Below are positions 2,748 through 52,983 of a DNA stretch of 64,000 nucleotides, one piece after another. This DNA is from Candidatus Heimdallarchaeum endolithica (lineage in GTDB: Archaea; Asgardarchaeota; Heimdallarchaeia; Heimdallarchaeales; Heimdallarchaeaceae), in contig CP084167.1 of NCBI GenBank assembly GCA_021513715.1, forward strand, positions 2,080,001 through 2,144,000, read 5' to 3'. Positions within the stretch are counted from its first letter, which is position 1; every line of letters starts with the position of its first letter. The notes beneath the pieces were generated by a model. That model saw nothing but the letters and a program-made list of their open reading frames with translations. It did no database searches and was not told where the DNA came from. The translations under genes were made by a program, and so were the position numbers.

Positions 2748-3473
2748 ATGAGTGAGTGTTTTGTTATAGAATACGATACTATTGATTATTTAAGTGCGTT
2801 AAATATTCAGAATAGAATAAGAAACATAAAAGAGGAAGATAGAGAACACGACAATTTTTTGTTACTGTTACAGCATGAACCACCAGTTTTTACACTAGGT
2901 AAACAAGGAAAGAGAAGTGAAATCCTTGTTAGTGATGAGGTGTTGGAAAAAGAAGGAATTGAAGTTGTTGAAATCAGAAGAGGTGGAAAAGTAACATATC
3001 ATGGCCCAGGACAATTAGTTGCTTACTTTTTACTAGATCTAATACAATTGAAAATCACCATTCCAGATTTCGTTCACAAAATGGAAGAAGTAGTAATTCA
3101 AACAATAATGGAATACAACATAGAAGGATTCAGAAGAGAAGAATATCCTGGAGTGTGGATAAAACATAATGGTCAAATATCCAAAATAGCTGCTGTCGGA
3201 GCGAGAGCATCAAAGCATATAACATCACACGGATTAGCACTGAATATAAATACAAATATGAGTCATTTTCAAATGATAATTCCATGTGGAATAACAGATT
3301 TTAAACCCATTTCACTCAAGGAAGTTCTAAATAGAAGCGTTGATATGCGTGAAGTGTATGAGAAATTTAAAAACAATTTTGCTAAAGTATTTAACATAGA
3401 AATTAAGGATCTTTCACCAAGAGATTTATTGACAAAAATAGAAAAAAAAGAAAGAGAAACAGAAAAACAATAA
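2748..3473 (+). CDS. lipB: Lipoyl(octanoyl) transferase LipB
   Basis: HEPPVFTLG, RGGKVTYHGPGQLV, HGLALN, IIPCG motifs. Confidence 0.95.
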   Translation: MSECFVIEYDTIDYLSALNIQNRIRNIKEEDREHDNFLLLLQHEPPVFTLGKQGKRSEILVSDEVLEKEGIEVVEIRRGGKVTYHGPGQLVAYFLLDLIQLKITIPDFVHKMEEVVIQTIMEYNIEGFRREEYPGVWIKHNGQISKIAAVGARASKHITSHGLALNINTNMSHFQMIIPCGITDFKPISLKEVLNRSVDMREVYEKFKNNFAKVFNIEIKDLSPRDLLTKIEKKERETEKQ

Positions 3474-3497
3474 AACAATAAAGAAAAGTGAGTAATA

Positions 3498-4367
3498 ATG
3501 CCAAATGTAAGAAAGCCAGAATGGTTAAGAATTGGGAAGGTGCAGAGGGAAGAGATAAGACAAGTTCAAAAACTTATGAGAGAACTGCATCTACATACAG
3601 TATGCGAAGAATCAATGTGCCCAAATATAGGAAAATGCTTTGTAAATAAAACTGCAACATTTCTAGTGATGGGAAATGTCTGTACAAGAAATTGTAAATT
3701 CTGTGATATTGCAACAGGAAGACCACAACCACTAGACCCCATGGAACCAAAACATATTGTTGAGGCAGCTAAAAAACTAAATTTAGAGCATGTAGTAGTC
3801 ACATCAGTAACAAGAGATGATTTAACAGATGGAGGAGCTGCACATTTCGCAGAAATAACAAGAAAATTAAGAGAATATAAAGAAGATTTGATAATAGAAC
3901 TACTTATACCTGACATGAAAGGAAAAGTGGAAAGTATTAAAACAATAATAGAAGCAAAACCAAACATAATTAATCACAATGTAGAGGTAGTACCGAGATT
4001 ATATAAAAAAGTCACACCACAAGCAAATTATGAAATATCATTAAAAGTACTGAAAATGGTTAAAGAATATAGTAAGAAAATATTAACTAAATCAGGAATA
4101 ATGGTTGGACTAGGAGAAACAAAAGAAGAAGTAATACAAGTATTAAAGGATTTAAGAAAAGTAGATTGTGACATATTAACTATAGGACAATATCTGAAAC
4201 CACCAAGCTCAAACTTAGAAATAGAAGAATACGTCCACCCAGATACTTTTAAGGAATATGAAAAAATAGGTTATGAGCTGGGATTTAAGTTCGTAGCTTC
4301 AGCTCCGTTTGTGAGAAGCTCATTTAACGCAAAAGAAGCAGACTTTCTCTTAGCAACAGAAGTATAA
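3498..4367 (+). CDS. lipA: Lipoyl synthase LipA (radical SAM)
   Basis: CEESMCPNIGKC, CTRNCKFC, VRSSF motifs. Confidence 0.97.
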   Translation: MPNVRKPEWLRIGKVQREEIRQVQKLMRELHLHTVCEESMCPNIGKCFVNKTATFLVMGNVCTRNCKFCDIATGRPQPLDPMEPKHIVEAAKKLNLEHVVVTSVTRDDLTDGGAAHFAEITRKLREYKEDLIIELLIPDMKGKVESIKTIIEAKPNIINHNVEVVPRLYKKVTPQANYEISLKVLKMVKEYSKKILTKSGIMVGLGETKEEVIQVLKDLRKVDCDILTIGQYLKPPSSNLEIEEYVHPDTFKEYEKIGYELGFKFVASAPFVRSSFNAKEADFLLATEV

Positions 4368-4383
4368 AAAAAAGGGTTCAATA

Positions 4384-5079
4384 ATGGTCTCAAACGAAGA
4401 AAAGCAGAAGAAAATATTTAACACAGAAATAAACAAATTTTATTTTTTAGCATTAACGGGAAGCATTTTGTTTACAATAGCAGCAGCAATAAATCTGTCG
4501 AACAGGACAATACAATACTTAAGAGCAGTAAATTGGTTCTTTGATTATATTTTTGCAGCAGTAATAGCTTTAAGCTTAATACCAATAGCATTAAGCTTCG
4601 GAGGAATAGCAGACCTATACTTTAAAGATCACGTCAGAAAGGAAGGAATGCAAGGAAGAACATATTTGTTGATTTATGCAATAGGAGAAATATTAAAACC
4701 ATTCACTATAGGAAGCGTGGTCTTCGGAAGCTTGGCGATTCTAATAAGTCTAGCGTCAAGAGCAATGGGATTCAGAAAAATAGATCTAATGCTAACAAGA
4801 ATAAAAAAAATAACAGATATTAAAGTGGGAAGTATATTATACCAAATATTCGGATTCTATTCAATAATTGTTTCAGTAATAGCTTCAATAGCTAATGCAG
4901 CAGGAGATGAAGAATTACTAATTTATCTACTGGTATTCAATGGAACAATAGAAACAATATTGATGATAATGATAGGAATAAAAATAATAGTAGATGTGAC
5001 GATAATAAAAAGATACATCAAAAGAAAAAAAATAAAACCAAGATATATGAGAATCTACGGAACAATAAGAGAAAAATAA
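4384..5079 (+). CDS. Multi-pass membrane protein, paralog of 148..813
   Basis: Hydrophobic helices; full-length similarity to the 148..813 product. Confidence 0.75.
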   Translation: MVSNEEKQKKIFNTEINKFYFLALTGSILFTIAAAINLSNRTIQYLRAVNWFFDYIFAAVIALSLIPIALSFGGIADLYFKDHVRKEGMQGRTYLLIYAIGEILKPFTIGSVVFGSLAILISLASRAMGFRKIDLMLTRIKKITDIKVGSILYQIFGFYSIIVSVIASIANAAGDEELLIYLLVFNGTIETILMIMIGIKIIVDVTIIKRYIKRKKIKPRYMRIYGTIREK

Positions 5080-5180
5080 AGTCTATCACTATCAAAAAAG
5101 GTGTAACTATCACTATCACTATCACTATCAAAAGATAAACAAGGCGAAACAAAACGAAAAAGAAAACAAAAGAAAAGAAG
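5071..5180. repeat. Dispersed ~110-bp element with (CTATCA)n hexamers; inverted copy at 11690..11813
   Basis: 5071..5093 GAAAAATAAAGTCTATCACTATC is the exact reverse complement of 11791..11813; hexamer run and A-rich tail also shared. Confidence 0.75.
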
Positions 5181-5211
5181 AAATGGTGCGGGGAGAGAGA
5201 TTCGAACTCTC
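5173..5211 (-). repeat. att-like duplication of the tRNA-Leu 3' end (39-bp direct repeat of 6526..6564)
   Basis: AAAAGAAGAAATGGTGCGGGGAGAGAGATTCGAACTCTC identical at both positions. Confidence 0.9.
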
Positions 5212-5609
5212 CAAGCCTAAGAAAATAAATCAGTATAAACAGAATAACATTTTTTAACAAAATCATCAATAATTGTTCCTTCAACAGGAAATAGGTAGTG
5301 TTTAAATGACCACCTAATCCTTGAATTATTTTCATAAATAGCTTTTATCAATATTTTTTTGGGTATTTTGCTCCCTTTAAAAAAAGAGAAATAAAATTTT
5401 GATTATTATATTTTCACGCCACACCCCACCAATATTTTGTCGGAAGAAACTATGTACCACCAAAATTGGATTAAGGTAAGATTAGAATTTTAAACAAAGG
5501 TTAGAAAATTTAACAATTATAAAATAAACACGTATAATTTTATCTTATTGAAGTCAGTCAACTTTTTTTGGAAGTGTTAATAAAATAAAAAAGAATAAAG
5601 AGAAACAGT

Positions 5610-5770
5610 GTTAAACTTGGGCTAAGACAAGATTAAAATTATAAAGTGCTAAAAGTTCTACAAGATTAAAAGAAGTTAAAATTGGACTAAGATAGGATTG
5701 AAATGACTTAATTAAAGAAATAAGCTGGTGTTGAATAATAGTTAAAATTGGACTAAGATAGGATTGAAAT
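5610..5770 (+). CRISPR. Mini CRISPR array: degenerate repeat 5610..5639, repeats 5675..5704 and 5741..5770, spacers of 35 and 36 nt
   Basis: GTTAAAATTGGACTAAGATAGGATTGAAAT differs by one base from the main type I-B repeat; a further decayed copy lies at ~5459..5488. Confidence 0.85.
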
Positions 5771-5879
5771 AGAAGTTTGAAAAGTCTCAGCAAATTGACG
5801 AGGATCAACCTTAGAACGAGAAGAACCAAAAGCGAAAACAGCCTTATCAAAACCACAAATATACAGAAAGGACTTAAAA

Positions 5880-6530
5880 TAAGAACTAACCTCTTCAGAA
5901 CGAAGAAAAGGAAAAAAAGGAGGAAAAGGAGGGAGAAAAGAAGACGGAAGAAGAGATGAAGAATTAAAACGATGACGCATAAGGAGACGATAGGAAGGTA
6001 AAAAAGAATCAAAATAGGAAAAGAAAAAATCATAAAATTCCTCAAAAGAGAAAAAAGAACTGAAAAAGGAAGAAGATAAAAAATTAAAATCTAAATCAGA
6101 TAAAAAAAAGAATGCAAAATCAGATAAAAAATTAGGAAGAGAAAAATGCAAAAAAGAAAAATGAGCATAAAATAAAGAAAAATTGCAAAGAGAAAATTTA
6201 CGGGAAGAAAAAGAATCAAGGAAAAAGGAAAGAAAAGATTTCCAATTAAAATGAGAATCAAAAAAATGAAAAGAGGAAGAAGAAAGAGAGAAAGGATCAT
6301 TAAAGGAAATAAGTAAAAAAATGTCCCTTACAAAAAAAGAAAGAGAAGAGGGAGAAGAGGAAGAAAGAAGAGAAAGAAAAGAAAAAAAATCAGGGGAAGA
6401 ATCAATAAAAGTCTGAAGTAAAAAAACAAATTGAGGATCGTGAAGAAAAGAAAAAGAATCGATAACAGAAAAAGTAGGAGAAAAAGCAACCATAAAGAAA
6501 AAAGGAAAAGGAAATATATAAAGATAAAAG
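5880..6530. repeat. ~650-bp low-complexity polypurine (A/G) tract
   Basis: Strongly A/G-rich on +; generates spurious F/S/L-rich ORFs on -. Confidence 0.8.
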
Positions 6531-6536
6531 AAGAAA

Positions 6537-6621
6537 TGGTGCGGGGAGAGAGATTCGAACTCTCGAACCACTAAGGACTGGATCCTAAGTCCAGCGCCTT
6601 TGACCGCTCGGCAATCCCCGC
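6537..6621 (-). tRNA. tRNA-Leu(TAG), CCA encoded
   Basis: GCGGGGA...CTGGA-CTTAGGA-TCCAG, long variable arm, TTCGAAT, TCCCCGCACCA. Confidence 0.96.
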
Positions 6622-6864
6622 GAAAGTTGAAGCAAATGAACAAAGTAGGAAACGAGAAGCTTTTCTATATGGATTAAGAAACGAGTTAACATCTATTTTT
6701 TAAATTTATCTCTGTAAGATAATAAAAGAATATAAAGAAAATAATTATTAAGAAGAGGACACGACAAACAAAAATATTAAAAATCAATTTAATTCTATCA
6801 GTTCAAAAAGACAAAAAGACAAAAAGACAAAAAAAAGTAAAAATGGAGAAAAATGCAACTAGAA

Positions 6865-6972
6865 GCCCCGATGGTGTAGCTCGGCCAATCATAATGGACT
6901 TTCACATGCTAAAGTCCGCGGATGTGGCAGGAATATCCATTGACCCGGGTTCAAATCCCGGTCGGGGCACCA
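6865..6972 (+). tRNA. tRNA-Glu(TTC) with ~30-nt intron at 37/38 (6905..6934)
   Basis: GCCCCGA/TCGGGGC acceptor stem, ATGGA-CTTTCA[intron]A-TCCAT, TTCAAAT, CCA. Confidence 0.93.
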
Positions 6973-22263: not shown

Positions 22264-22370
22264 GCGCCAATAGTCTAGTGGCTAGGACCTCTGACTTCCA
22301 TTAGAAGGCTTCTAATAAGCATTCACGAAGAAATCAGAATACCTGGGTTCAATTCCCAGTTGGCGCACCA
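22264..22370 (+). tRNA. tRNA-Gly(TCC) with ~32-nt intron (22301..22332)
   Basis: GCGCCAA/TTGGCGC, TCTGA-CTTCCA[intron]A-TCAGA, TTCAATT, CCA. Confidence 0.93.
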
Positions 22371-23807: not shown

Positions 23808-23915
23808 GCTCGCGTAGTCTAGTTTGGCTAGGACTCGTCACTGCCAAGCTGCTTTCTGTATGAAAGTAGTTGTGGAACTGACGGAACCCGGGTTCAAATC
23901 CCGGCGCGTGCACCA
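23808..23915 (+). tRNA. tRNA-Gly(GCC) with ~31-nt intron (23847..23877)
   Basis: CGTCA-CTGCCA[intron]C-TGACG, TTCAAAT, CCA; U3:U70 mismatch in the acceptor stem. Confidence 0.88.
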
Positions 23916-25180: not shown

Positions 25181-28100
25181 ATTTCAATCCTATATTAGTC
25201 CAATTTTAACCTGCAAAGCTTTTGATATAACTTCAAAGTAGCTAGAATTTCAATCCTAAATTAGTCCAATTTTAACACCAACTGGTTCAAAGTACTATTT
25301 CAGCAAAGCTATATTTCAATCCTATATTAGTCCAATTTTAACATTTTCTCCTTGAAGGGTAGGGGGCTAGTCTTCCATATTTCAATCCTATATTAGTCCA
25401 ATTTTAACACCAACTGGTTCAAAGTACTATTTCAGCAAAGCTATATTTCAATCCTATATTAGTCCAATTTTAACCCAATTTTTACATTCATCTATAGCAT
25501 GATTACAAAAATTTCAATCCTATATTAGTCCAATTTTAACGTTTATTCAGAAACAGATAATAGAACAGTTGAGGTCGAATTTCAATCCTATATTAGTCCA
25601 ATTTTAACGATTGTGAGTGTTTGTTCATAAAGCGTAGAATTAACATATTTCAATCCTATATTAGTCCAATTTTAACTTCTGTTTCAGCATAGTCTTGATA
25701 ATTGGGATAGGAATTTCAATCCTATATTAGTCCAATTTTAACTTTGATTGCTGATTTTACTTTAGAAGTTAAGAATTTTAAGGATTTCAATCCTATATTA
25801 GTCCAATTTTAACTATTGAATGAAATCTTATCTGAATACTCTTCTAATAATTTCAATCCTATATTAGTCCAATTTTAACTTGTTGTTACTTCTTCAACAG
25901 TACATTCAATATTTGTATTTCAATCCTATATTAGTCCAATTTTAACGTTCTCTGCACCCCCGAGTATGAATTTCCCGACTGCATTTCAATCCTATATTAG
26001 TCCAATTTTAACTTGTTGTTACTTCTTCAACAGTACATTCAATATTTGTATTTCAATCCTATATTAGTCCAATTTTAACGTTCAAGTATGAAATTCAGAC
26101 CGAAACCATTTGAAAAATTTCAATCCTATATTAGTCCAATTTTAACAGTCAAACAATAAAGAAGCGTGAGAGTCATATTTTACATTTCAATCCTATATTA
26201 GTCCAATTTTAACGCATTGTTTATTAGGACAGTCAAGTACTTCAAAATAATTTCAATCCTATATTAGTCCAATTTTAACACTTAAAGTTAATGGAGAGTT
26301 TGAGGTAAAGGCTAAATTTCAATCCTATATTAGTCCAATTTCAACACTACCAGCGAAAGGATCAAGAACAATATCATCTTCTATTTCAATCCTATATTAG
26401 TCCAATTTTAACGAGATAAATCAGCATCTTCAGTCATATCATAAGTAATATATTTCAATCCTATATTAGTCCAATTTTAACTTCATCTAAAATTATCAGG
26501 AGTGTCTTCAACAACATATTTCAATCCTATATTAGTCCAATTTTAACCAATACTCAAATCTCAGAAATGAGTGATATGATCGTATTTCAATCCTATATTA
26601 GTCCAATTTTAACTCTGACTGGCCGAATTGGTATGACTTCTGATAGTGAATTTCAATCCTATATTAGTCCAATTTTAACCCAATTTTTACATTCATCTAT
26701 AGCATGATTACAAAAATTTCAATCCTATATTAGTCCAATTTTAACCCAATTTTTACATTCATCTATAGCATGATTACAAAAATTTCAATCCTATATTAGT
26801 CCAATTTTAACCTCTTGTTTCTGGTTTCTCTATTCTAACAGGTAAAATATTTCAATCCTATATTAGTCCAATTTTAACCACTTCAAGAGTTTTACTATTA
26901 CTTTGAATGATAAAATTTCAATCCTATATTAGTCCAATTTTAACTACACAAAAAAGAATAGTAATATATAAAAGAAGAAAATTTCAATCCTATATTAGTC
27001 CAATTTTAACGAATAAGCCTCCTACTTTATAATAACGCTTCTTCTTAAAAGTATTTCAATCCTATATTAGTCCAATTTTAACTATTCTGTTTTAGCAATA
27101 GCTATTTTTTCAAAAGCTATTTCAATCCTATATTAGTCCAATTTTAACGAATACTCAGAAGGCAATTAATCAACCTGACTAAACATTTCAATCCTATATT
27201 AGTCCAATTTTAACAGTTCCTACTTCATAGATCGTTTTTCTCTTGTCCAAATTTCAATCCTATATTAGTCCAATTTTAACTAATCATTACCTGATGTATA
27301 AGAAGATGAAAATCCAATTTCAATCCTATATTAGTCCAATTTTAACCTATCTCCTTCACATGATATTTCAACTGTCTTCTTAATTTCAATCCTATATTAG
27401 TCCAATTTTAACTAAGTAAGAAAGGATCTTATCACCGATAGTACGAAAATTTCAATCCTATATTAGTCCAATTTTAACAAGAACTTTTCTAATTTTTTCT
27501 TTTTTAAAAATAATATTTCAATCCTATATTAGTCCAATTTTAACTTATTATATTCTCACCCTTATTAAATGCTAGAATATATTTCAATCCTATATTAGTC
27601 CAATTTTAACATTTGAGCCTATAAAAGCAAGTAATGGGCCAATCACATTTCAATCCTATATTAGTCCAATTTTAACTAAATGAACCAGATAAAAGTAATG
27701 TCACAAATTATGATTTCAATCCTATATTAGTCCAATTTTAACAATAGAGTCTTCTTATTCAACAAATACAGATGAGAAATTTCAATCCTATATTAGTCCA
27801 ATTTTAACTTCCATAATAAGATCAATAACATCATTATGAAGAAAATTTCAATCCTATATTAGTCCAATTTTAACACATTGCTATTGTCCCGACAATAACA
27901 TCATCATATTTATTTCAATCCTATATTAGTCCAATTTTAACTAGCAACTTGTTTAGCTTTTTGAGAAATTACTGCAATTTCAATCCTATATTAGTCCAAT
28001 TTTAACCCGCCCCAGCAACTAGTGCCAGTAAAATAACAGTTGATTTCAATCCTATATTAGTCCAATTTTAACAGGGTTTTGTTTAAACAGTTGTTCATCG

Positions 28101-28270
28101 GCTCCATGATTTCAATCCTATATTAGTCCAATTTTAACAATACTGAAAACTTTATTCTCCATGCACTTAAACAGATTTCAATCCTATATTAGTCCAATTT
28201 TAACCGTCATACTGAAAAGTGATCTTCTTGTTGCTAACAGATTTCAATCCTATATTAGTCCAATTTTAAC
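25181..28270 (-). CRISPR. Type I-B CRISPR array, 47 repeats / 46 spacers (35-42 nt)
   Basis: 30-bp repeat ATTTCAATCCTATATTAGTCCAATTTTAAC on +; ATTGAAAT 3' end and leader beside cas2 imply minus-strand transcription. Confidence 0.98.
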
Positions 28271-28382
28271 ACTTGTTATATTCTTCTACCACTTCATTTT
28301 TCTCTTATCTTCTAAAGATGTTTGTCTGGGATCATATATAGTGTTATTCCTTTATAAATATCCCAGATTTTTTTATAATAAG
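28271..28382 (-). promoter_or_regulatory. CRISPR leader with TATA-like TTTATAAA
   Basis: AT-rich, lies between cas2 and the first repeat; homologous to 38063..38150. Confidence 0.8.
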
Positions 28383-28646
28383 TTATATGAATTGCCCTGT
28401 TTCTACTTTTTCAATCCCTAAGTTAGACAACTTAACTAGTTCTTTACTTCGTATAGTATAAATTCTCACACAATCATGTTCTTCATTCATTAGACGTTTT
28501 AGGCCATTTTCTATTTCTACTAGTTGTGTTTTCGTTATTTCTCCTTCAAAAACTGAATTTTGAACTCTTTCTAAGAAGCATCTCAGAAAGTTACATACTT
28601 TTGACACTCTTTCTACTCCCACGTCATAAACTATTATGGCATACAT
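28383..28646 (-). CDS. cas2: CRISPR-associated Cas2
   Basis: IIVYDV, RVQNSVFEGEIT. Confidence 0.97.
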   Translation of the reverse strand: MYAIIVYDVGVERVSKVCNFLRCFLERVQNSVFEGEITKTQLVEIENGLKRLMNEEHDCVRIYTIRSKELVKLSNLGIEKVETGQFI

Positions 28647-28647
28647 T

Positions 28648-29727
28648 TTACCACCAAATTACGAAGGGTTCATATTTTTTCATCCCCAATAAATGTTTGC
28701 ACAATTTTATGCATTCCAAATAAATCAATCTCTCATAAGAAACATTTCTTTTAAGGGAGCGATGTTTTATTGTAGAATTTAATTTTTTCTCATATTCCAT
28801 CACAAAAATTTTTTTACCTTTTTCATTCAACAAGCAGCTATTTAACTCTTTTACAAAATGCTTTTCTGTTATTATCTGTTTGTTAGTTAATTTAAATATG
28901 ACCCGATCTACTATTAATGGTTTAAATATTTCTGAGAGGTCTAAAGATAGTGAATATCTTCTTTCTGATGGTTCATGTAAAAAAGCGATTGTTTGATTCA
29001 ATTGTGTGTGGTAAATATTTTTTATTATTGTTGAATAAAGAAGGGCGTTTCCAAAACTTATCATAGCATTAATAGGATTCAGGGGAGGTTGTTTTGTTCT
29101 TTTCTCAAATTTAAAAGTATTTTTTATAATAACATCAAAGCAGGCATAATATTTATTCCGTATACCACCTTCAAGAGCTCTTAATTTGTTAATATCAATT
29201 ATATTTGTGATTTTTTTTATCTCATTTTCAATATATTCTATCTTACTTTCAAAGTCTCTTCCCTCGCTTTGGTAATATTTTAGATTTCTCAACATATTTA
29301 GAGATGCTCCTTCAATAAATTTTCTTGCTAGAAGAATTCTCTTTCTGTAATCTAAGTAGTGTGCAGCTTGGTTTATATGCATTTTTCCAGACAGTAAACT
29401 TTCTTTTGGAATAATGGAACCCTCATAATTACCATAATATCCAAAGAAATGGACGGGGATTGATTTTTTGCATAGCAAGGAGATAACTCCTGAAGTAAGA
29501 GATACTCTACCATATAAAAACAGATTTCCTATTTGCTCAATTGGTAAGATCCTTTTTTCATATTCAAGTTTATTGGCAATATTTTCTGTTTCAACGTCAA
29601 ATTCCTCTTCATCAATCTCGGCCTTAAATACTTTATTATTTTCTTCTTGTTTTTGATAAATGAAATAAATGGTATTATATTTTCTAATTAATTTACCATT
29701 TTTTAAAATATAGAAATTTTTATTCAC
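28648..29727 (-). CDS. cas1: CRISPR-associated Cas1 (type I-B)
   Basis: HFFGYYG, NAMISFGNALLY, FLHEP...SLSLDLSEIFKP. Confidence 0.97.
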   Translation of the reverse strand: MNKNFYILKNGKLIRKYNTIYFIYQKQEENNKVFKAEIDEEEFDVETENIANKLEYEKRILPIEQIGNLFLYGRVSLTSGVISLLCKKSIPVHFFGYYGNYEGSIIPKESLLSGKMHINQAAHYLDYRKRILLARKFIEGASLNMLRNLKYYQSEGRDFESKIEYIENEIKKITNIIDINKLRALEGGIRNKYYACFDVIIKNTFKFEKRTKQPPLNPINAMISFGNALLYSTIIKNIYHTQLNQTIAFLHEPSERRYSLSLDLSEIFKPLIVDRVIFKLTNKQIITEKHFVKELNSCLLNEKGKKIFVMEYEKKLNSTIKHRSLKRNVSYERLIYLECIKLCKHLLGMKKYEPFVIWW

Positions 29728-29730
29728 TTT

Positions 29731-30243
29731 TCACACCCAACAAAACTCAAAATATGCACATTTTCTACAATAACTTTTTTTTTCAGGTTTTGGAGGACTA
29801 GGCATTGCAAGTATTTCTTTTATTTCAGCTAATATGTTTTCTAACTTTTTTTCTATTTCAGCATTTAAAGTTAAATTGATTCTTTTTTTAACAAGAGGAT
29901 AGTCAATAATTCCTTCTACGAGTTCAATTTTTTTGGTCCGTTTAAGATAATATATATAATAATAAAGTTGATATTTATGCGCGTCCTCAAGACTTTGTGA
30001 TTTTTTAATTTCATGCAAAATCAATTTTTCTCCTTTTTTCAAAAAATCAATAGCTATTTTGTTATCAACGATAATGTTTTTTTTCATTCTAGGATAAGTT
30101 ACTTCATGAATAAAACTACCTAGTCTTACTTCTTCAGAGGATTGTTCCATTCCCATGTTATAGGAAAATAACCACAGCTTTGTTTTGCATACTATGGAGT
30201 AATTGATTTGTAACCCCCTAAAAAAGTCGAACTCGTTCAGCAT
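29731..30243 (-). CDS. cas4: CRISPR-associated Cas4
   Basis: CKTKLWLF, HEIKKS, QLYYY, CRKCAYFEFC. Confidence 0.96.
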   Translation of the reverse strand: MLNEFDFFRGLQINYSIVCKTKLWLFSYNMGMEQSSEEVRLGSFIHEVTYPRMKKNIIVDNKIAIDFLKKGEKLILHEIKKSQSLEDAHKYQLYYYIYYLKRTKKIELVEGIIDYPLVKKRINLTLNAEIEKKLENILAEIKEILAMPSPPKPEKKSYCRKCAYFEFCWV

Positions 30244-30306
30244 AATAATTTCATTTTACTAAAATATTAAAGCATTTTTAAAAATTTTAAAATTGGCTTT
30301 TGTTTT

Positions 30307-33000
30307 TTAAATTATGTTTTCTTCTTCAATTTCAAGCTTATCCATATTCAAATTTTCTAGCTTGTTAATTCCTAGTTCTTTTATTTTTTTTAATGAACTA
30401 TGGGGTAGTTGCTTAAGAACATAGAAGCCTTTAAACATTTCTCGTTCCAAAAAAACGTATGTTTTAAAATTTTTACCAAAAGCGTAAATAGGGACATGAA
30501 AGGAATAGGAATATAATTTTTTTAAGATAGTCCACTTGCTCGTTTCTATCTGTGTTTTCTTTTTAATTATTTTTGCAATGCTATTGGTACTTTCATTTTT
30601 GCTTTCAAATGGGAGAACCCAATTATCTTTGTTTGTTCTATCAGCAATTAGTGCACCTAATGCTTTTTCGATTTCATCATCACCAAATTCTTTCATTACG
30701 TCAGGTATCAGTACTTGAATTCCTGCCATGCGCCTAAAAACGGTTTGCGCTTGACTTTTCTTCTCCGCGGAGAAATATTTTAACCATTCAAGTGTCTCCT
30801 CTATTTTTTCTTCATAATATTCTCTAAGCGTTCTACCATTAATCTTCGCTTTAAAGACTTGCTCTATTATTTCTCTTTCATTTTCATAATTTAGTATCCC
30901 CTTTTTCTCATATTTTTCTAATACTTCAATCGTTTTATTTAGCATTATCTCTGGTTGGTAAATAGCTTTGGTTCCTTTGTCTATTCCAGTATAGATGTAC
31001 ACATTCGGAGTTGATTCTTTGTAGTCACTTTCTCTGTTCCTATAAATACGCCCCCATCTTTGAATTTGTGAGTCTACAGGAGATATTTCAGTAATTAATA
31101 TATCAAAGTCCACATCAACAGATGCTTCTACCATTTGTGTAGAAATAAGTATTAAATGCTTCCGATTTTTTAAATTATTCTTTATTTTTGATATTCTCTT
31201 ACTCTTTTCTTTTTCAATTATTCTAGAATGCAAAAGTTCTGCATATATTTTATGATTTTTAAACGTTTCATATAAACTAATAGCTTTTCCTACATTATTA
31301 ACAATAATAAGGACATTTTTATCAGGATTAGTTGTCAGTATCTTATTTAACTTTCGGAAAGAATCTTTTGAAACAAAGTAGGATGGGTTATTGTCTTTAG
31401 AATCGTAATTAAAGAGCAAATCATCGATTAATTGAATCTTATGTCTTCTGAGGGAAAAGTTCTTTATTGATTTTTTATCAGAGATATCTTCTTTAAGATC
31501 AATGAGTGTAAAATCTAGATTTATTTCTTGTGTATTTCCTTTGTTTTTAAACAAAAACTTTCGAAAGTATGGAGGAAATGTTGCTGTGATAATAAGTATT
31601 TTACCACTTAATTTATTTATTATCTCTAATGTTTTTATAATTATTGCAGCCATCTCTGGATTATAAGCTTGAATTTCGTCAATAATTACTGTACTGGTTG
31701 GATAAAGAGAAAGAACTTTATCGAAACCATAATATTTCAACGATGTTAGAAAGATCTGATCAGGTGTTGTTAACAAAACAGGGGTAGAAAAAAGTTTAGC
31801 AGAAAGCATTTTGCAATTTATATCTATCTTCTTTCCTTCTTTTTCTTCATCCAAATATTCCATAAATGATGTAGAATGGAGGATACCCAAGTATTTTTCA
31901 TCAAAATAGTTAATTTCTGCTTTTTTTCCATTTTTTGCTATTTTAAACTCTTGAAATCGAGTAAATAAATCATTTAATGCAACACGTAAAGGGAGTGTAT
32001 AAATTACCTTTCGTCCTGACTTTTTGGCCCATAATAAAGCAAATTCTGTTTTACCAGACCCTGTAGGAGCAACTAAGACTATGTTTTTTTTAGAATGGTC
32101 TATTTTTGCAATGATCTCTTTTTGCCATATTTTTTCTTTGTTTGTTATTAATTTAATGGCTTTTGATATTTCCACCTCTAACTGCTGGAAAACGGTTTCT
32201 ATACTTGATATCTCTTCCACGTTTATCTGACCACTGGCCCCATAATCACATCGTCTTAAACACCCTAGAAAAACAAAAAAGGAGTAATCGGGCTTTTCAT
32301 TGTCAATTTCATATAATTTTAATTCTGTTGTTAAACCATACCCTTTCTTGATTTTTTGCAACAATTTCGTCAATCTTATAAATCCTGGTTCTATCTCGTT
32401 TAGTAAAGCATTACTTATGTGTTCACCTAACAATTCTTTTTGTTTTTCTATAAGTGCAATTAACAGCGATTTGATTTGATTGTTGTTTTTAATAATAAAT
32501 TCTATGAATTTCTCTATTTCTGGATAATTATCAATTATATAACGTATATTCTTTTCTTGTTTAACATAAAAATCATTGTAGTGATGAAGTAAAATGGCTG
32601 TTCGAATTTTTTGATTTCTTTCATCATTATTTAAAAAAATAAGAGAAAAAATCACAGAAAGAATTTCATGATCCTTTACTTTTTGATCAGTTAGTTCTTT
32701 AAAGAATTTCTTGACACTTAGCCATTCTTTTTCTTTTTTTTCTGCGTATTTAAAGACCAATCCTTGAAAATAGGGATTGATTTTGCCAAGATCATGAATA
32801 AAAGCAGCTTTTACTAAATCTTCGAGGAAAAAATCACTTTTTATTTCTTTGAAATCTATTACATTTTCATTTGCTTTGATAAACTCATGTAATTTTTTTA
32901 CTTGATATATAATATCTTGTGTGTGTTCCCATAAAAGATATCTTTTTTGATCTTTTGATTTTGCTCTTAAAACTTCTATTAATTCCAATTTTATAACCAC
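30307..33000 (-). CDS. cas3: Cas3 HD nuclease-helicase
   Basis: IHDLGK, APTGSGKTE, IDEIQ, QRWGRIYR. Confidence 0.97.
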   Translation of the reverse strand: MVIKLELIEVLRAKSKDQKRYLLWEHTQDIIYQVKKLHEFIKANENVIDFKEIKSDFFLEDLVKAAFIHDLGKINPYFQGLVFKYAEKKEKEWLSVKKFFKELTDQKVKDHEILSVIFSLIFLNNDERNQKIRTAILLHHYNDFYVKQEKNIRYIIDNYPEIEKFIEFIIKNNNQIKSLLIALIEKQKELLGEHISNALLNEIEPGFIRLTKLLQKIKKGYGLTTELKLYEIDNEKPDYSFFVFLGCLRRCDYGASGQINVEEISSIETVFQQLEVEISKAIKLITNKEKIWQKEIIAKIDHSKKNIVLVAPTGSGKTEFALLWAKKSGRKVIYTLPLRVALNDLFTRFQEFKIAKNGKKAEINYFDEKYLGILHSTSFMEYLDEEKEGKKIDINCKMLSAKLFSTPVLLTTPDQIFLTSLKYYGFDKVLSLYPTSTVIIDEIQAYNPEMAAIIIKTLEIINKLSGKILIITATFPPYFRKFLFKNKGNTQEINLDFTLIDLKEDISDKKSIKNFSLRRHKIQLIDDLLFNYDSKDNNPSYFVSKDSFRKLNKILTTNPDKNVLIIVNNVGKAISLYETFKNHKIYAELLHSRIIEKEKSKRISKIKNNLKNRKHLILISTQMVEASVDVDFDILITEISPVDSQIQRWGRIYRNRESDYKESTPNVYIYTGIDKGTKAIYQPEIMLNKTIEVLEKYEKKGILNYENEREIIEQVFKAKINGRTLREYYEEKIEETLEWLKYFSAEKKSQAQTVFRRMAGIQVLIPDVMKEFGDDEIEKALGALIADRTNKDNWVLPFESKNESTNSIAKIIKKKTQIETSKWTILKKLYSYSFHVPIYAFGKNFKTYVFLEREMFKGFYVLKQLPHSSLKKIKELGINKLENLNMDKLEIEEENII

Positions 33001-33854
33001 CCAAAGTCATTTACTATTGGAAAAGTTTCTAATTTTTTATCCAAATTAATGTCACAAAATTCTACCTCTATAGGACTTTGTAAAATAAGACTATGATCAG
33101 GACTGATGTATATAACTTCTTTAAACTCTGCACGCCTGTAAGTTTCCTTAGTTATTTGCTTTTTAGATTCAACTGGTTGTCCATTATTTTCAAAAATTAC
33201 CTTAGTTGGTACAAAAAATACAGGAAATTTCAGATTTTTGATAGGAAAATTTGTTCTAGTTATAAAAGTAGGATAATGTAATTTAATATCACCTTCAATT
33301 ATCTCTTTTTCAACAGATTCAACAAAATTAACAGATCTGATGTAAGCAATATCTTCTCCCCGGCCTAGACTTAATACCTTTTTTGTTTTTTCCAGTGATT
33401 CAGCAATTTCCTTTATCAGCATAAGTTGCTCTCTTTTTCCTTTTTTTCCTGCTTTTATAAAAATAAATAGATGACCATTAAATAGTTCTTGTACATAGAT
33501 TGGTGTTCTTTGAGCTGTTTGACCATATCCATAAAGAGGTATAGGTTTGTTCTTACTTGCTTGCTTGTTTACTAGCATATTCCGTTCCTTATCAATATAC
33601 ACTTCACCTCTGATGCTATGCTGATAATTCCAAAAAGAGCTCTCAAAACCGCCAAAAATTGCAATTTTTAACTCCCACCAAGTTTCAATTCCTTGAATAT
33701 GCCCGTACCAATCATTACAAGCATTTTGTAACATACCAATAATCGCTGACTTAGGGGGTAAGGGAAAGCTTTGCGCATAATAAAAAGTAAAGGGATTTCT
33801 ATAGAGCGCAAAGGGTTGAAATATTTCAATGAATAATATTGCTTCTTCTGTCAT
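32991..33854 (-). CDS. cas5: Cas5
   Basis: FALYRNP...SFPLPPKSAIIGML, LSLGRGED. Confidence 0.93.
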   Translation of the reverse strand: MTEEAILFIEIFQPFALYRNPFTFYYAQSFPLPPKSAIIGMLQNACNDWYGHIQGIETWWELKIAIFGGFESSFWNYQHSIRGEVYIDKERNMLVNKQASKNKPIPLYGYGQTAQRTPIYVQELFNGHLFIFIKAGKKGKREQLMLIKEIAESLEKTKKVLSLGRGEDIAYIRSVNFVESVEKEIIEGDIKLHYPTFITRTNFPIKNLKFPVFFVPTKVIFENNGQPVESKKQITKETYRRAEFKEVIYISPDHSLILQSPIEVEFCDINLDKKLETFPIVNDFGWL

Positions 33855-33892
33855 ATAATCCCTTTTTTTATTTTTAAAGCAAAATGAGGATG

Positions 33893-34924
33893 CTAATTCC
33901 TATTTTTTGCTTCATGTTCTTCAGCAACAAATTCAGGTTCTACTTCTACTGAACTTCTTTTGTATCCATATAATTGAGAAATATTTTGTGGTACAGTTGT
34001 GTCATCTTCTAAAAATTCCTCTACTTTGTTCAATATATCGTCAAATTGTGCGTTAATAATCTGTTTATTACGATCAATATCAACAATAAATTTTGGAGCT
34101 TCTTTCTCAATAATTTGATGTTCAATCTCATTCATAATAGTACCATCCTCTTTTTCGATTTTTCTTTCATTTGTAATTACTTTATATACATTTGATTTAC
34201 TTATTTCAATCTTATCCATATAAGTTTCATACCTTGCATCGTTATAAAGCCCCACAATCATCAGCCAGGGTGAAAGATTTTCCATGCGCCCTTTAATTTC
34301 CCTTTTAAGTGTAAATATTGTTTCTAATAATTGTTTAATTCTTTCATTTTTTTCTTGTTCATCAATCCTGAATTGATCTCCATCTTCGTCTAAGATTCCT
34401 ATTCTATTTACATCTATAACTAAATTATATACATAGAAATCCTTTTTTTCTTCGGAAGTGAAAGGATTACTACCTTCGCCTCCAGCTCGTTTCATAACGT
34501 CTAGATTTGCCAAAAATTGTGTATCAAAGTTGAATGGTGTCATAGAAATAGCATGTGAAATTTTAACAGGAGATACACGAGTAGTTGCACCTTCAGAACT
34601 ACCTTTTTTGGCAATCATAAAACCAAATAAATCAAATTCTGGGAAGCCTAGGATTTCTGAATCCTTAAGTAGTTGATTATTAGGACAAACTACACCTCCT
34701 TTAGTATTAGTTAATTGATCTGGTCCGGCTAATTTCCACTTATTTGGAAAAAGCTTGTTTCCATGGTGTAAGATACTGTACCGAAGAGCATAACGGCTAA
34801 CCAATACATATTGGCGACCATCCCATTTTGTTATTTTTTTTAGTTCTTGATAATTTCCTGAGCCTTGGTCATAATTCAAGGAATTACCATAGAATACTAT
34901 ATCTACTACAATATATTTACTCAT
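33893..34924 (-). CDS. cas7: Cas7 (Cst2/DevR, type I-B)
   Basis: SLNYDQG.GNYQELKK, VSRYALRY, EFDLFGFM, RVSPVKISHAIS. Confidence 0.93.
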   Translation of the reverse strand: MSKYIVVDIVFYGNSLNYDQGSGNYQELKKITKWDGRQYVLVSRYALRYSILHHGNKLFPNKWKLAGPDQLTNTKGGVVCPNNQLLKDSEILGFPEFDLFGFMIAKKGSSEGATTRVSPVKISHAISMTPFNFDTQFLANLDVMKRAGGEGSNPFTSEEKKDFYVYNLVIDVNRIGILDEDGDQFRIDEQEKNERIKQLLETIFTLKREIKGRMENLSPWLMIVGLYNDARYETYMDKIEISKSNVYKVITNERKIEKEDGTIMNEIEHQIIEKEAPKFIVDIDRNKQIINAQFDDILNKVEEFLEDDTTVPQNISQLYGYKRSSVEVEPEFVAEEHEAKNRN

Positions 34925-35207
34925 CTTTTTCTTTCTCCTTTAAATTTTTACTGTTTGTGTTATATGTATTCATTATTCCGATGATTATTGAATAAGCGTA
35001 ATTGGGAAAAACCTCTTTTGGCATTAAATCATAAGTTGAATTTAGTTGTTCAATCAGTTTACTAAGTTCTTTTTTTGGCTGGTTAATTGCTTTTAAAAGA
35101 ACATAAAAGAATCGTGTTTGGTCATTTGCCTTCACAGTATCCAGAAGAGTGTAAACTAATTTTTGCTTATAGTTGTCTGAAACATCCGTAAAAGATTTTT
35201 CAGTCAT
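34917..35207 (-). CDS. cas11: Stand-alone small subunit (Cas11-like)
   Basis: 96-aa helical protein between cas8 and cas7 resembling the Cas8b C-terminal domain. Confidence 0.7.
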   Translation of the reverse strand: MTEKSFTDVSDNYKQKLVYTLLDTVKANDQTRFFYVLLKAINQPKKELSKLIEQLNSTYDLMPKEVFPNYAYSIIIGIMNTYNTNSKNLKEKEKDE

Positions 35208-35299
35208 TGTTCTTAACTTACGTAATTCAATTTTTGTTTTTTTATTACCATAAACTTTTTGCCAGTAAATTTTTTTAACCTCCTTCTCACTATTTTTTA

Positions 35300-36937
35300 T
35301 TATTTAATTAATTGTAATATAATAATCAAAGCATATTCTTGCCAAGAGTGCTCATTCAGCACTACTTTGTCAAATAGCCATTTGTTTATTTTTTTCAACA
35401 ATTTTTTTGAATCTTTTTTGTTACATTCGTTTAATTTTTTTAGCAAATAATTTAAAAAGTAGATTTTTTGCTTTTTCAGTAAGATATGGATTAAATCCGT
35501 AGAAAGTTTCAATTTCTCATCTTTTGGGATCAAAGAAAGTATCAAACTAGAATAATAAGAAGAATTTCTGATTTCTTCGTTTATGTCTCTTACCAAGAAA
35601 TTATAATCGCTAAAAAAATCTTTTGAGAATAAACGTTTTTCATTTTTTAATTCACGAATTATTGCTTCGATTATTAAAGAATAAAGAGATGAACTAAATC
35701 GAAAAATTTTATTTGAAGAATCAGTGATGCACAAGAGACAATGTTGTAAAATTAGCGGATAAAGAGGTCTTCCACTAATAAATTCTCTTAAAAGCCATTT
35801 TTGTTTGTATTTTTTCTTGATTTTTTGATACTTTAAATAAATATTGATGTTTGATCTTATTTTATTATCTAACAATATACTTGCATGAAGCTTTGAAATT
35901 CCAATATAGTTTACGGATTGTATGTTTTGCTGATTGTCGACGCCGTCATGTTCTATGACATACATATTTTCTAATGAAAAAATACTTTTTTGTTCAAACA
36001 TGTAATCTAAAATACTGTTCCATGTCACTTTAAGAACGTCCTTATTACGATCCTTTTTTTCCAGTCTATTTAGCGATAGCCGAATACTTTTGTTAATATG
36101 GTAACTACTGTGTAGGTTGTTTGTATAAAATAATATAAATTTAGGTTCAAAAAAACTGGTAAAGGCAATAGGAAAACAAAGTAAATAAATAATCACAGAT
36201 TGTTCAAACAGTTCATTAAAATCATCTAGCGTTTGTATTTTACAATATAGAATATTCAAAGCTTCGCTTTCTGCAAACATAAACTTTGAAATAGTTTTAT
36301 CTAAAGCATTAGGGGTATCACTACCTTTAATTTTAGTTCTATAAAGCATATCTTCAAAGGCGAGAAAGACATCACTTTCTTTCCCTTTTTTGTTCTTTGA
36401 AGGGTTACAGAAAGGTAAATTTAAAAAAAATGGTTCTGTAAAGATTATACCAACATTTTCTATTTTTTTCAATACATTAGGACTTGTTTTAGAGCCAAAA
36501 GAATTTTTAAGATCACATTCAAATTCAGAAAAACTTTCTTTGATTTCGTCTTTAAAGTGATTATTAATATCAATAATAGCTTGTCGAACTTCATTTGGCG
36601 ATTGAAAAGAAGAGGGGACATTTTTATAACTTAACAATTCCTTTTGTAAATTCCTTTTCATCTCTTCAAAATGTTTCTTTTTTGTTTTACTTTTACTAGC
36701 TAAATCTTGCTTATTTATCCATTTTATTGCGGTTTCCTTAATATAATATAAAAAATAAGCATAATAGAATTTCTCTTTATAAAGTGGTTGACTAATTATT
36801 TTGTCAAAGCTTTCACCATAAACATCTTCAATTAAAAAGATATATCCTAAGATCCCTGCGTCTATATACCAATTACCAGTAAAAGATATTTGTTCAGTAG
36901 AATTATTTTTCTTTTCATCATGAATGATAACTGTCAT
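35300..36937 (-). CDS. cas8: Cas8 large subunit (Cst1/Cas8b1-like)
   Basis: FTGNWYIDAGILG N-terminal motif; position in the operon. Confidence 0.85.
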   Translation of the reverse strand: MTVIIHDEKKNNSTEQISFTGNWYIDAGILGYIFLIEDVYGESFDKIISQPLYKEKFYYAYFLYYIKETAIKWINKQDLASKSKTKKKHFEEMKRNLQKELLSYKNVPSSFQSPNEVRQAIIDINNHFKDEIKESFSEFECDLKNSFGSKTSPNVLKKIENVGIIFTEPFFLNLPFCNPSKNKKGKESDVFLAFEDMLYRTKIKGSDTPNALDKTISKFMFAESEALNILYCKIQTLDDFNELFEQSVIIYLLCFPIAFTSFFEPKFILFYTNNLHSSYHINKSIRLSLNRLEKKDRNKDVLKVTWNSILDYMFEQKSIFSLENMYVIEHDGVDNQQNIQSVNYIGISKLHASILLDNKIRSNINIYLKYQKIKKKYKQKWLLREFISGRPLYPLILQHCLLCITDSSNKIFRFSSSLYSLIIEAIIRELKNEKRLFSKDFFSDYNFLVRDINEEIRNSSYYSSLILSLIPKDEKLKLSTDLIHILLKKQKIYFLNYLLKKLNECNKKDSKKLLKKINKWLFDKVVLNEHSWQEYALIIILQLIK

Positions 36938-37124
36938 TAGACAACCAAAAATAAATAAAGAGATAATTATTTAAACTTACCTTATTTAAAATAAAGGTAG
37001 GGTCTAGTTTTCCTTCCTGTTGTACGTAAAAAAGAGGTAATTAGGCGGAGACTCTTAATTATTTATTTTGTAGAAAATTAAAGCCCACTTTAAAATGCAA
37101 TTATACCGATTTATTAAATTTAAA

Positions 37125-37862
37125 CTATTTTTTTAAATTAACAAAACCAAAACCCATAGTATTTCGTTCTCCAAAACCCGTATCAAGGCCAAATTTGATT
37201 AATTTATATTGAAAATCATCTACATAGCTCCACTCAAATTCCCACATAGTTGCAGCAAATTTATGTCCTTCACCATGTATGAATAGTTTATTATAAACAG
37301 TTTTTTTATAAGAAAATTGCTCAAAAATATCAATATTTTGGATATAGGTTTTATAAAAATGATTATATTTTTTAATAAGATTTTCTGAGAGTTGTTTAAG
37401 AAAAGCGTGAAAAGGGTAGTGTGGTCTCCAATAAACATATCTCCTTTTTCTTTCTTTTTCGGGAATTTGATACTCGTCATATTTCTGTTCAGGTATTCGT
37501 ATTATTATGGGGGTTGATGAAACAATGTGGATATTTCGTCTTGGTAGAACAATGTCAATAGGCTGAACATCAGTAATTCTAAATTGCATCTCACCAATGT
37601 TGATTACATCTTCGTGTTTCTTTTTCAACATTAGCTGCTCGTATAGAGAATTAATTATTTTCTTCAGAGGTGAAGAAATAATTAAATACTTTTGAGAATC
37701 ACCAAAAATATTAGAAAAACAAAAAAATTTGTAGTCATCCTTTTTATCATGTAAGGAAGAAAAGTCTTTCTTGAGTAGAGAATAAATAAAACCACTAAGT
37801 TTGTTATAAGCATAATCAATATATTGCTTTTTTACATCGTCCATTTTAATAAGTAATCTCAT
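37125..37862 (-). CDS. cas6: Cas6 endoribonuclease
   Basis: YKFFCFSNIF, C-terminal GFGERNTMGFG glycine loop. Confidence 0.96.
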   Translation of the reverse strand: MRLLIKMDDVKKQYIDYAYNKLSGFIYSLLKKDFSSLHDKKDDYKFFCFSNIFGDSQKYLIISSPLKKIINSLYEQLMLKKKHEDVINIGEMQFRITDVQPIDIVLPRRNIHIVSSTPIIIRIPEQKYDEYQIPEKERKRRYVYWRPHYPFHAFLKQLSENLIKKYNHFYKTYIQNIDIFEQFSYKKTVYNKLFIHGEGHKFAATMWEFEWSYVDDFQYKLIKFGLDTGFGERNTMGFGFVNLKK

Positions 37863-37903
37863 CCAAGATTACCTGAATAGTTATAACTATAAATATTTAT
37901 ATC

Positions 37904-38062
37904 AATTCAACCTATAAATCAAATTTAAACTACTCGTCACAAGTCTCTTCTTACTCATCTTTTCTAACTTCAATCCTATATTAGTCCAATTTAAATGATA
38001 GCAGAGTAATTATGTGGCGGTCTGCAAAACCGATTTCAATCCTATATTAGTCCAATTTTAAC
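37904..38062 (-). CRISPR. Mini array upstream of cas6: perfect repeat 38033..38062, 3-mismatch repeat 37967..37996, decayed repeat ~37904..37930; 36-nt spacers 37997..38032 and 37931..37966
   Basis: Same repeat as the main array, regular 36-nt spacing, own leader. Confidence 0.9.
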
Positions 38063-51404: not shown

Positions 51405-51915
51405 GTATCTGACGAACTGATACCTATTTGGTCGAACTAAGCTTGAGCGATTAGTAGCAGTGGGCTAAACATCTCGCCGAAGCTCGACGCGCACACCCCT
51501 GCTCTATCTACCGGATCTTCTTTCCGTGCTCTCGTCTATACCAGTGGTTGCTGTCACCAGCCCCCATGAGGTACAGAATGGGAGACTCGTTTCGAGAGAC
51601 GCTTCGAGCATAGATGCTTTCCGCTCTTATCGTCAAGGGCTTAGCTACTCGGCGATGCCCTGGAGGACAACCGATACACCAGAGGCCCCAACTAGATGTT
51701 CCTCTCGTACTAATCGAATTTTACTCTCAATCTCCCGCCAGCACCATCAGATAGAATCCAACCTGTCTCACAACGGTCTAAACCCAGCTCACGTTCCCTT
51801 TTAATGGGCGAACAACCCCACTCTTGGAAGCTGAATCACCTCCAAGCTAGGAAGAGCCGACATCGAGGTAGCAAGCCGTGAGGTCGATGTGAACTCTTAC
51901 CCACGACAACTCTGT

Positions 51916-52338
51916 TCAGGGCTACACTAGTCTTTTTTTTCGACTTTGGCTATTAGATTAGTTGTCAGCCTCGGCTTAAGGCAAGTTACCGATCTAATAA
52001 CCTCTTGACCTCACACTTTCAAAATGGCTCTTCATCTTTTCCAAGGGTCTTTTTTCTTGATGGTTAAGGCAGATGTTGGATCCGTTTCTATCTAATCCGC
52101 TCAAGTTTTCCTTTTTTTTGACCATTAGGCGAAAACTTGTAATTAAGTAATCCTCAATCGATAACTTTTTTTTGCGGTATATTATTCATTCGGGTAAAAT
52201 TTGACCCACCTTAGCTTTATTCTTTAAATCAGTTTCATTTTTTCGTGCCCTTGAAAAGATAAAGTTTGTGCAATTCTTTGCAGGAAAAGTTCCTTTCTTT
52301 TGTCTAGCCACTTTGATAGTGTGCCATCAAAGTGTAGT
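51916..52338 (-). other. ORF-less BHB-type intron (423 nt) at ~E. coli 2450/2451
   Basis: Interrupts CAGGGGTA^ACAGAG; CTACACT/AGTGTAG stem, TAA bulge, GGGG/CCCT helix, GAA bulge. Confidence 0.85.
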
Positions 52339-52983
52339 TACCCCTGAGGTAACTTTTCCGCCACCTCCGCCGCCTACTATGGGCAATGCGAAGGATCGCT
52401 AGGCCCTGCGTTAACATCTGCGAACCTTCTCTATCAGTTCACAGTCAACCAAGCTTTTGCCCTTGCACTCTACACCGGATTTCTGTCCCGGTTGAGCTTG
52501 GCTTTGGGCCCTCTTGATATCTTTTCAAGAGGCTACCGCCCCAGTGAAACTGCCAGGCAGAGGGTGTCCCCCTCGCAAGAGGTGAGTCGTACCAATGCTC
52601 AAAGTCAGTATTTCACTTTCGGCTCCCCTACATCCCGGAGAATGTAGGATCGACGCCTCCTGACTATTCTATGTATGAACACCAATACAACAGCCTCTGA
52701 CAGCAGTAAAGCTCTACAGGGTCTTCTCTTCCCGATGGTGCATTCCAGACTGTTCGCTGGACTGTGGGTTCAGTAGGATTCAGGTGGAGACAGTGGGCAC
52801 CTCGTTGGTCCCTTCATGGACGTCTGTAATTAGCAGACAAGGCATTTGCCTACCTTAAGAAGCTCATAGTTAGCTCCGGCGTTTACTGGGTCTTAGCCTG
52901 GTTGTACCCAGGTTTCAATCACCAGCACCGGCCAGGATTCACAAACTGTACACAGGTTTTCACCCTTGCAGTTTGCTATGTTT

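Follow-up and report, generated by a model that had tools for sequence, protein, structure and literature searches.

Probable scar of a CRISPR array fragment recombined into its own target in a tRNA-Leu island of Candidatus Heimdallarchaeum endolithica

How does a piece of a CRISPR array, without cas genes of its own, come to lie between the attachment (att) copies of a tRNA-Leu island that other genera lack and whose single gene is destroyed? The question is raised by a 1.35-kb segment in the closed 3.33-Mb genome (31% G+C) of the Asgard archaeon Candidatus Heimdallarchaeum endolithica (G000). We analysed a 64-kb stretch around it, bases 2,080,001-2,144,000, here called the window; positions refer to the window unless a locus is named. 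A preliminary description had seen in the segment a minimal guide cassette or the remnant of an element, with a mini-array as its only cargo, and had pointed to the mini-arrays of mobile elements, which serve in conflicts between elements or act as RNA anti-CRISPRs. Comparison with the sister species Candidatus Heimdallarchaeum aukensis (G001) suggests a different answer: the segment is probably the scar of an array fragment that recombined into its own target, and not a designed guide cassette.

The island and the replaced part of its gene

The island carries the hallmarks of tRNA integration, exact 39-bp border repeats and an empty site in relatives. The right copy, attR (6526-6564, minus strand), comprises the 3' 28 nt of a tRNA-Leu(TAG) gene and 11 nt downstream, and the tRNA gene itself is intact (6537-6621, minus strand); attL (5173-5211) is an exact copy of the same 39 bp, as the preliminary description had stated. 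This duplication is also present in the sister genome, where it flanks a 2.85-kb island at the corresponding tRNA-Leu (locus L017). In another genus (G002, G006) the site is empty, with lipA, ~690 bp and a tRNA-Leu with one att only, which marks the island as an insertion peculiar to the genus Heimdallarchaeum. The sister island is filled by a single intact open reading frame (ORF) of 917 codons, counted from the first ATG (L017:4129-6882); the NCBI annotation starts at an internal Met and gives 746 aa. No integrase is encoded, and the protein of this sole gene, P0001, has no recombinase or replication match in Pfam, PHROGs or PDB sequence searches.

In the window, the segment had been described as lacking any real ORF, a view that the sister gene does not bear out as stated. 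Positions 5771-6493 (minus strand) hold codons 1-241 of this gene, a Phe/Ser-rich portion encoded by purine-rich DNA, with the reading frame still open and a TTTATATA box preceding the ATG. Its 3' end lies at 5217-5335 (minus strand), with the last 39 codons (5220-5335) and the stop codon (5217-5219); the match in this part is to residues 872-917 of P0001. Outside the missing part the two species are closely similar, with 94.8% DNA identity over 5771-6817, 95% amino-acid identity over residues 1-235 and 96.9% identity between 3000-5335 and the sister locus. Between the two gene remnants, 435 bp (5336-5770) substitute for 1,930 bp of the gene (L017:4834-6763). The segment is thus the remnant of a tRNA-integrated island, as had been considered, but not a cassette, as a large gene existed and an array fragment replaced much of it.

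The right-hand part of the replacement is a short array on the plus strand, made of repeat R2 (5675-5704), spacer S2 (5705-5740) and repeat R3 (5741-5770). R2 has the same sequence as R3; T17G is their only difference from the repeat of the main array of the type I-B system in the same window (29/30), and their 8-nt 5' handle, ATTGAAAT, is the same as the resident handle. The two intact repeats with a shared T>G change and their compatibility with the host system, both noted before, are thus borne out. The inferred orientation also stands: both resident arrays have a common leader located on the GTTAAAAT side, and the position of the protospacer-adjacent motif (PAM) agrees with it. Fifty matches to the repeat were found, where none is expected by chance. 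Searches of G000, G001, 30 family genomes and the Joint Genome Institute (JGI) metagenome contigs gave no further repeat with G17, except at the same locus in one contig, which speaks against the variant repeat belonging to another resident array.

A search with S2, as had been proposed, gave a clear target. With 36 nt the spacer has the modal length of the main array, and it matches the sister gene at 33 of 36 positions (L017:5385-5420; mismatches at positions 9, 27 and 30; blastn-short E = 1e-8 in 131 kb, no shuffle attaining the score), within the portion that is deleted here. A second match is formed by the right junction itself. Homology to the gene restarts at 5771, the first base past R3, so that the repeat is joined directly to its target where the PAM-proximal end of a protospacer lies; we call the adjoining 36 nt 'S3' (5771-5806, plus strand; L017:4798-4833 in the intact gene). 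The two sites lie on one strand at a distance of 587 bp, and in the intact gene CCA stands directly before each of them on the spacer-sense strand. This trinucleotide occurs at 1.2% of the positions of that island strand, which gives a joint chance of ~1.5e-4, and CCA and CCT are known PAMs of other type I-B systems. The two sites coincide with those motifs that are best conserved in the protein family, IIQHQLISLIKS for S2 and DPRQFAESFQTS(W) for S3, the CCA before S3 being the Trp codon of the motif FAESFQTSW. An independent resident example points to the same PAM: the leader-proximal spacer 37997-38032, the sole spacer of a two-repeat array, matches the antisense strand of a sister tRNA-Cys at 33 of 36 positions after CCA (L035:14194-14229, G001).

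Origin of the array fragment

All 1,930 deleted base pairs lie on the PAM-proximal side of the S3 protospacer, and this is the direction in which Cas3 resection runs in type I systems. The other end of the replacement has a different character. At the left junction (5331-5335) a microhomology of 5 bp, TTCAT, is common to the gene and to the interior of an insertion sequence (IS), as seen in a three-way alignment (A3).

This IS is represented by the ~130-bp right end (5336-5462, plus strand) of a ~763-bp element with 15-bp terminal inverted repeats (GGTRGTGTCTAGTTT), and is 72-77% identical to the full copies, of which there are ~10 (e.g. G000:C1:514727-515489). The transposase of 235 aa gives weak rve and rve_3 matches below the Pfam cut-offs. 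Among the 47 genomes of the order that were searched, the IS was found only in the two Heimdallarchaeum genomes, and none of the 47 holds a closer relative of the relic. Next to it follows a pseudo-repeat, psiR0 (5463-5488, plus strand), with five changes, the first 3-4 nt being replaced by the abutting IS end. The segment in the following spacer position (5489-5609, plus strand) contains a relic, 75% identical (5513-5592), of a miniature inverted-repeat transposable element (MITE). This ~140-bp element with the ends TAGTACTTCCG...CGGAAGTACTA and target duplications of 6-7 bp has more than 20 copies (e.g. G000 C1:1435796-1435874). In shuffle tests the stretch scored z = 11.2 against the MITE; for the leaders of the two resident arrays the values were z = 1.8 and -1.4. 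An early MAFFT alignment had looked suggestive of a leader for the mini-array; the shuffle tests were not significant and the candidate was dropped, the stretch being the MITE relic. Judged against the two resident leaders, a promoter-bearing leader of the type known from the Saccharolobus viruses SPV1 and SPV2 is absent. By eye only, a TATA-like TTATAAAA can be made out at 5519-5526.

Downstream of the MITE relic lies a degenerate repeat, R1' (5610-5639, plus strand; 25/30), with an altered 5' handle (ATTAAAAT), and between it and R2 a 35-nt unit, 'S1' (5640-5674, plus strand). The latter had been taken for a spacer. It resembles R1', with 12 of 12 matching positions at the 3' end and a score attained by 0.25% of shuffles, and no target for it was found in G000, in G001 or in the island gene and its paralogs; we read 'S1' as a probable damaged, indel-bearing copy of R1' and not as a captured spacer. 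On direct reading, psiR0 and R1' have two derived changes in common (G21A and G26A) and three private changes each, whereas R2 and R3 have none of these. The degenerate repeats on the 5' side had been described as decay of a polarity opposite to the usual one. The polarity is there to be seen, but the upstream units are old debris, clipped by the IS, split by the MITE and in one case without a spacer, and no pair other than R2 and R3 is pristine. The two transposon relics are 72-79% identical to all resident copies. Among themselves, the resident copies of the IS share 86-99% identity, and those of the MITE are nearly identical on inspection of the alignment. The fragment was therefore either old or foreign on arrival.

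We propose the following origin. The lineage carries the att-flanked island with its one large gene, which is still intact in Ca. H. aukensis, and the PAM-correct matches suggest that two or more spacers against this gene, among them S2 and S3, were once present in a type I-B array of G17 repeats. From the two junctions it appears that a part of this array entered the gene by copying or recombination. Its one end would have been anchored where S3 and its protospacer are identical over 36 bp, through a crossover or through strand invasion, leaving R3 where the PAM had been, and the other end would have been closed on the 5-bp microhomology within the IS that already bordered the array. Such an event may be named illegitimate recombination facilitated by homology, or else the templated repair of a gap made by Cas3, with copying leftwards from S3. 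The product would be the leaderless fragment now observed, whose upstream portion is old debris. Precedents exist for the separate parts of this process: recombination between spacer and target and deletions caused by self-targeting are on record (PMC8616872, citing Varble 2019 and Vercoe 2013), and self-targeting by the Haloferax type I-B system is repaired by homologous recombination or by deletions through microhomology-mediated end joining (PMC5435918, PMC7521656).

Several points weigh against this origin. The donor array was not found, no array with G17 repeats being present in any of the collections searched, which are limited samples. The 36-bp anchor is short for homologous recombination, and in its sequence outcome a crossover would look the same as an untrimmed fragment integrated aberrantly by Cas1-Cas2. 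S2 differs from the sister allele at three positions. The main-array spacer 26614-26649 matches its own genome at 35 of 36 positions with the flank CAT (G000:C1:3794-3829), and CCA may thus not be the sole PAM, or the target may have escaped. This match is possibly a tolerated or escaped self-target; it lies near the chromosome start, where the HeimV1 provirus is placed by Wu et al. (PMC8813620). As the fragment has neither a leader nor a proven promoter, expression of its guides is a prediction. Finally, other members of the gene family are not adjacent to tRNA genes.

Persistence, present function and competing explanations

A second strain carries the same arrangement. The metagenome contig Ga0164318_10380424 (L040; 1,237 bp) contains the parts in identical order, reaching from attL to within the gene remnant, and shows 33 mismatches (2.7%) to the window. 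No change is seen in R2, R3 or 'S1', and a single one in S2, at position 33. In the array part 3 of 308 nt differ, in the gene remnant 25 of 636. A three-way comparison of the window, L040 and the sister locus revealed a mosaic: beside the junction L040 and the sister differ at a single site (5779) and 9 of the 10 window-specific differences fall within 5785-5914, while farther on the window and L040 group against the sister. The probability of such clustering by chance is ~1e-5, and at least one further recombination event therefore began at or near the junction. That R2 and R3 are preserved, when psiR0 and R1' have each acquired three private changes, is a hint of constraint, though from small numbers.

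If the fragment is transcribed, R2-S2-R3 would form a complete processing unit with the resident handle, and R3 together with the downstream sequence could provide a second guide. Cas6 and Cascade would have to come from the resident I-B system. The CRISPR RNAs (crRNAs) would then recognise intact copies of the island, where the CCA is present, on incoming DNA, and the scar itself would be protected by the repeat sequence, whose AAT stands in place of the PAM. The three mismatches of S2, one of them at position 9, might favour priming over direct interference. As the truncated gene has kept its TTTATATA box, it would be transcribed antisense into the array. R1' and 'S1' could in principle act as RNA anti-CRISPRs or solitary repeat units; support for this is not found here, and the pristine unit has a PAM-correct guide.

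That the fragment arose as proposed but is now silent and neutral, with R2 and R3 alike because of a recent duplication, is a real possibility, if somewhat less likely than not. The lack of a leader and the flanking IS and MITE relics fit such inert debris. The change counts from two strains are also too few to prove constraint, and part of the excess in the gene remnant stems from one recombination tract. However, R2 and R3 have remained unchanged while psiR0 and R1', which duplicated later, as indicated by their common derived changes, gained three more each. Moreover, S2 and the junction coincide with the family's two most conserved motifs, as expected for retained spacers with inescapable targets.

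A more active role has been considered in two forms. In the first, the segment is a weapon carried by an element: a non-autonomous derivative of the island, moved in trans, whose mini-array directs the host Cascade at intact competitors and so brings about superinfection exclusion. Both att copies are intact, the second strain has the identical architecture, and virus and phage mini-arrays show the same pattern, in which the spacer hits a close relative's adjacent gene and the carrier has lost that site (PMC6858448). To this extent the earlier idea of a mini-array for conflict between elements has survived, since the clear spacer does point at a related element; but the array, bordered by IS and MITE relics, is not the only cargo, as parts of a large gene remain, and the target is the island's own gene. 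We regard the weapon as unlikely, because neither an integrase nor any complete gene is present, and the sole other known copy (L040) stops at attL and so gives no evidence for a second chromosomal site. The similar divergence of island and flank from the sister (94.8% and 96.9%) fits vertical descent at one site, the shuffle test revealed no leader, and the guide would destroy the very helper that the element needs. In the second form, the scar may be a self-spreading allele: crRNAs from R2-S2-R3 and from R3 with the sequence behind it would lead Cascade-Cas3 to cut intact islands on DNA received from related strains, and repair from the scar would convert them, spreading the mini-array in the population like a natural CRISPR gene drive at a tRNA-linked locus. 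The recombination tract that starts at the junction is compatible with this, and so is the targeting-biased recombination reported in Haloferax (PMC12814878), but on balance we judge a gene drive to be improbable.

The reading with the poorest prospects, which we consider very improbable, is growth in situ, where a lone G17 repeat would have entered the gene and there received S3 and S2 from Cas1-Cas2 by ectopic acquisition: R2 and R3 are alike, as fresh duplicates would be, and the 13 nt ahead of R2 resemble the end of the resident leader (~10-11/13; alignment 2118033-2118076), but this likeness is not significant (18-27% of shuffles attain the score), spacers join on the leader side, so that the unit next to the gene should be a repeat and not a protospacer, and neither the exact restart of homology at a CCA-flanked site after R3 nor the missing 1.9 kb is explained.

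Known systems, the gene family and the genomic setting

The closest parallels are the leaderless mini-arrays of phages and other elements, whose proposed source is recombination with the arrays of the host (Faure et al. 2019, as reported in PMC6858448 and PMC8616872). They share with the present case one or two spacers, host-like repeats, the lack of cas genes and of a leader, and spacers against a neighbouring gene of a close relative whose site is deleted in the carrier. In contrast, the carrier here is a gutted chromosomal island without a complete gene, the junction is preserved as a repeat abutting a PAM-flanked protospacer, and IS and MITE relics have been carried along. The mini-arrays of the Saccharolobus viruses SPV1 and SPV2 (Medvedeva et al. 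2019, PMC6858448) likewise combine an archaeal host and host-matching repeats with targets in close relatives, near the array; they have promoter-bearing leaders and lie between genes of replicating viruses, whereas the array described here is leaderless and has replaced a gene.

Homology between spacer and target, and an array joined to its target, were also seen in the staphylococcal spacer-protospacer recombination of Varble et al. 2019, according to PMC8616872. That case was experimental, concerned type II and III systems and yielded transducing phage particles, while ours is a natural, fixed product in an Asgard chromosome whose second junction is illegitimate. Cases of self-targeting in Haloferax (PMC5435918, PMC7521656) have in common with it the type I-B system, the chromosomal target, the microhomology joins and the repair by recombination. 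The 'territorial dispute' between array C1 and HeimM1, as presented by Wu et al. 2022 (PMC8813620), resembles it in that spacers are directed against the sister's alternative allele of a nearby locus, and the tRNA-Cys spacer described above is a further parallel. In the last two cases the array stays in place; here, an array part lies inside the target.

Natural recombination junctions are rarely preserved for mini-arrays. The locus holds one intact, with the fusion of repeat and protospacer, a second PAM-correct spacer and the microhomology join. It would provide a concrete route by which CRISPR memory is written into the remembered element and disables it, and which may explain the rule that such spacers lie close to their targets. 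It also adds a mini-array to one of the two closed Heimdallarchaeum genomes, outside the arrays C1-C7 that Wu et al. list, and is the second case there of spacers against a sister species' allele of a tRNA-linked locus.

The island gene belongs to a small family. Only 7 representatives were found among 1.8 billion proteins, and homologous frames occur in 16 of the 30 genomes of the archaeal family and in none of 52 genomes elsewhere in the class. A third strain has an intact copy, known as protein P0003 (96% identical), and a metagenome scan by protein did not find the DNA of this strain. P0001 gave no Pfam and no PDB-sequence profile match and one insignificant PHROG match (E = 0.016). Its AlphaFold2 model was poor (predicted local distance difference test score of 59.5), and Foldseek and ESM Atlas searches returned no usable fold match. 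A motif like that of PD-(D/E)xK nucleases (NGFDD...E[LQM]K) was noticed by eye only in alignment A2 and is backed by no tool. The family was also considered as a general marker of tRNA-integrating elements and rejected as such: one paralog adjoins a tRNA without an att repeat, and ten further loci have no tRNA within 1.5 kb.

Some homologs sit within open frames of 1,000-4,600 codons (e.g. G002:C38:203799-205934 and G017:C25:6757-8937), reminiscent of the giant genes that Wu et al. describe in their 'aloposons'; those of G000 itself gave no match. A paralog in G000 (L022, C1:2196142-2200062) is broken after 554 codons, near L022:2441, and the break is followed by a purine-rich stretch and then by a TnpB/IS605-like ORF, the latter recognised by eye only. 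The sister's paralog is intact, with 803 aa, and abuts a tRNA.

The resident type I-B system occupies 25181-38062 on the minus strand, with arrays and cas genes. Its main array, found by repeat search (25181-28270, minus strand), has 47 repeats and 46 spacers and corresponds to array C1 of Ca. H. endolithica in Wu et al. 2022 (PMC8813620). Among the arrays C1-C7 described there, the orphan array C4 has 18 spacers, and the mini-array is therefore not one of those seven. The main array is followed, in this order, by cas1, cas4, cas3, cas5, cas7, an unassigned 545-aa ORF and cas6 (28648-37862); NCBIfam matches were obtained for cas1b, cas4, cas3, cas5b, cas7 and cas6. The two-repeat array lies upstream of cas6 (37967-38062, minus strand).

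Elsewhere in the window, which contains no small-subunit rRNA gene, the large-subunit rRNA gene (51431-55566, minus strand) is 4,136 nt long compared to 2,987 nt in the model. An ORF inside it (53014-53574) has a LAGLIDADG_3 domain (E = 2e-10), and the excess length is therefore probably due to an intron with a homing endonuclease. Three more tRNA genes of ~104 nt each (6865-6969, 22264-22367 and 23808-23912) were detected with Rfam and not with ARAGORN, and presumably contain introns.

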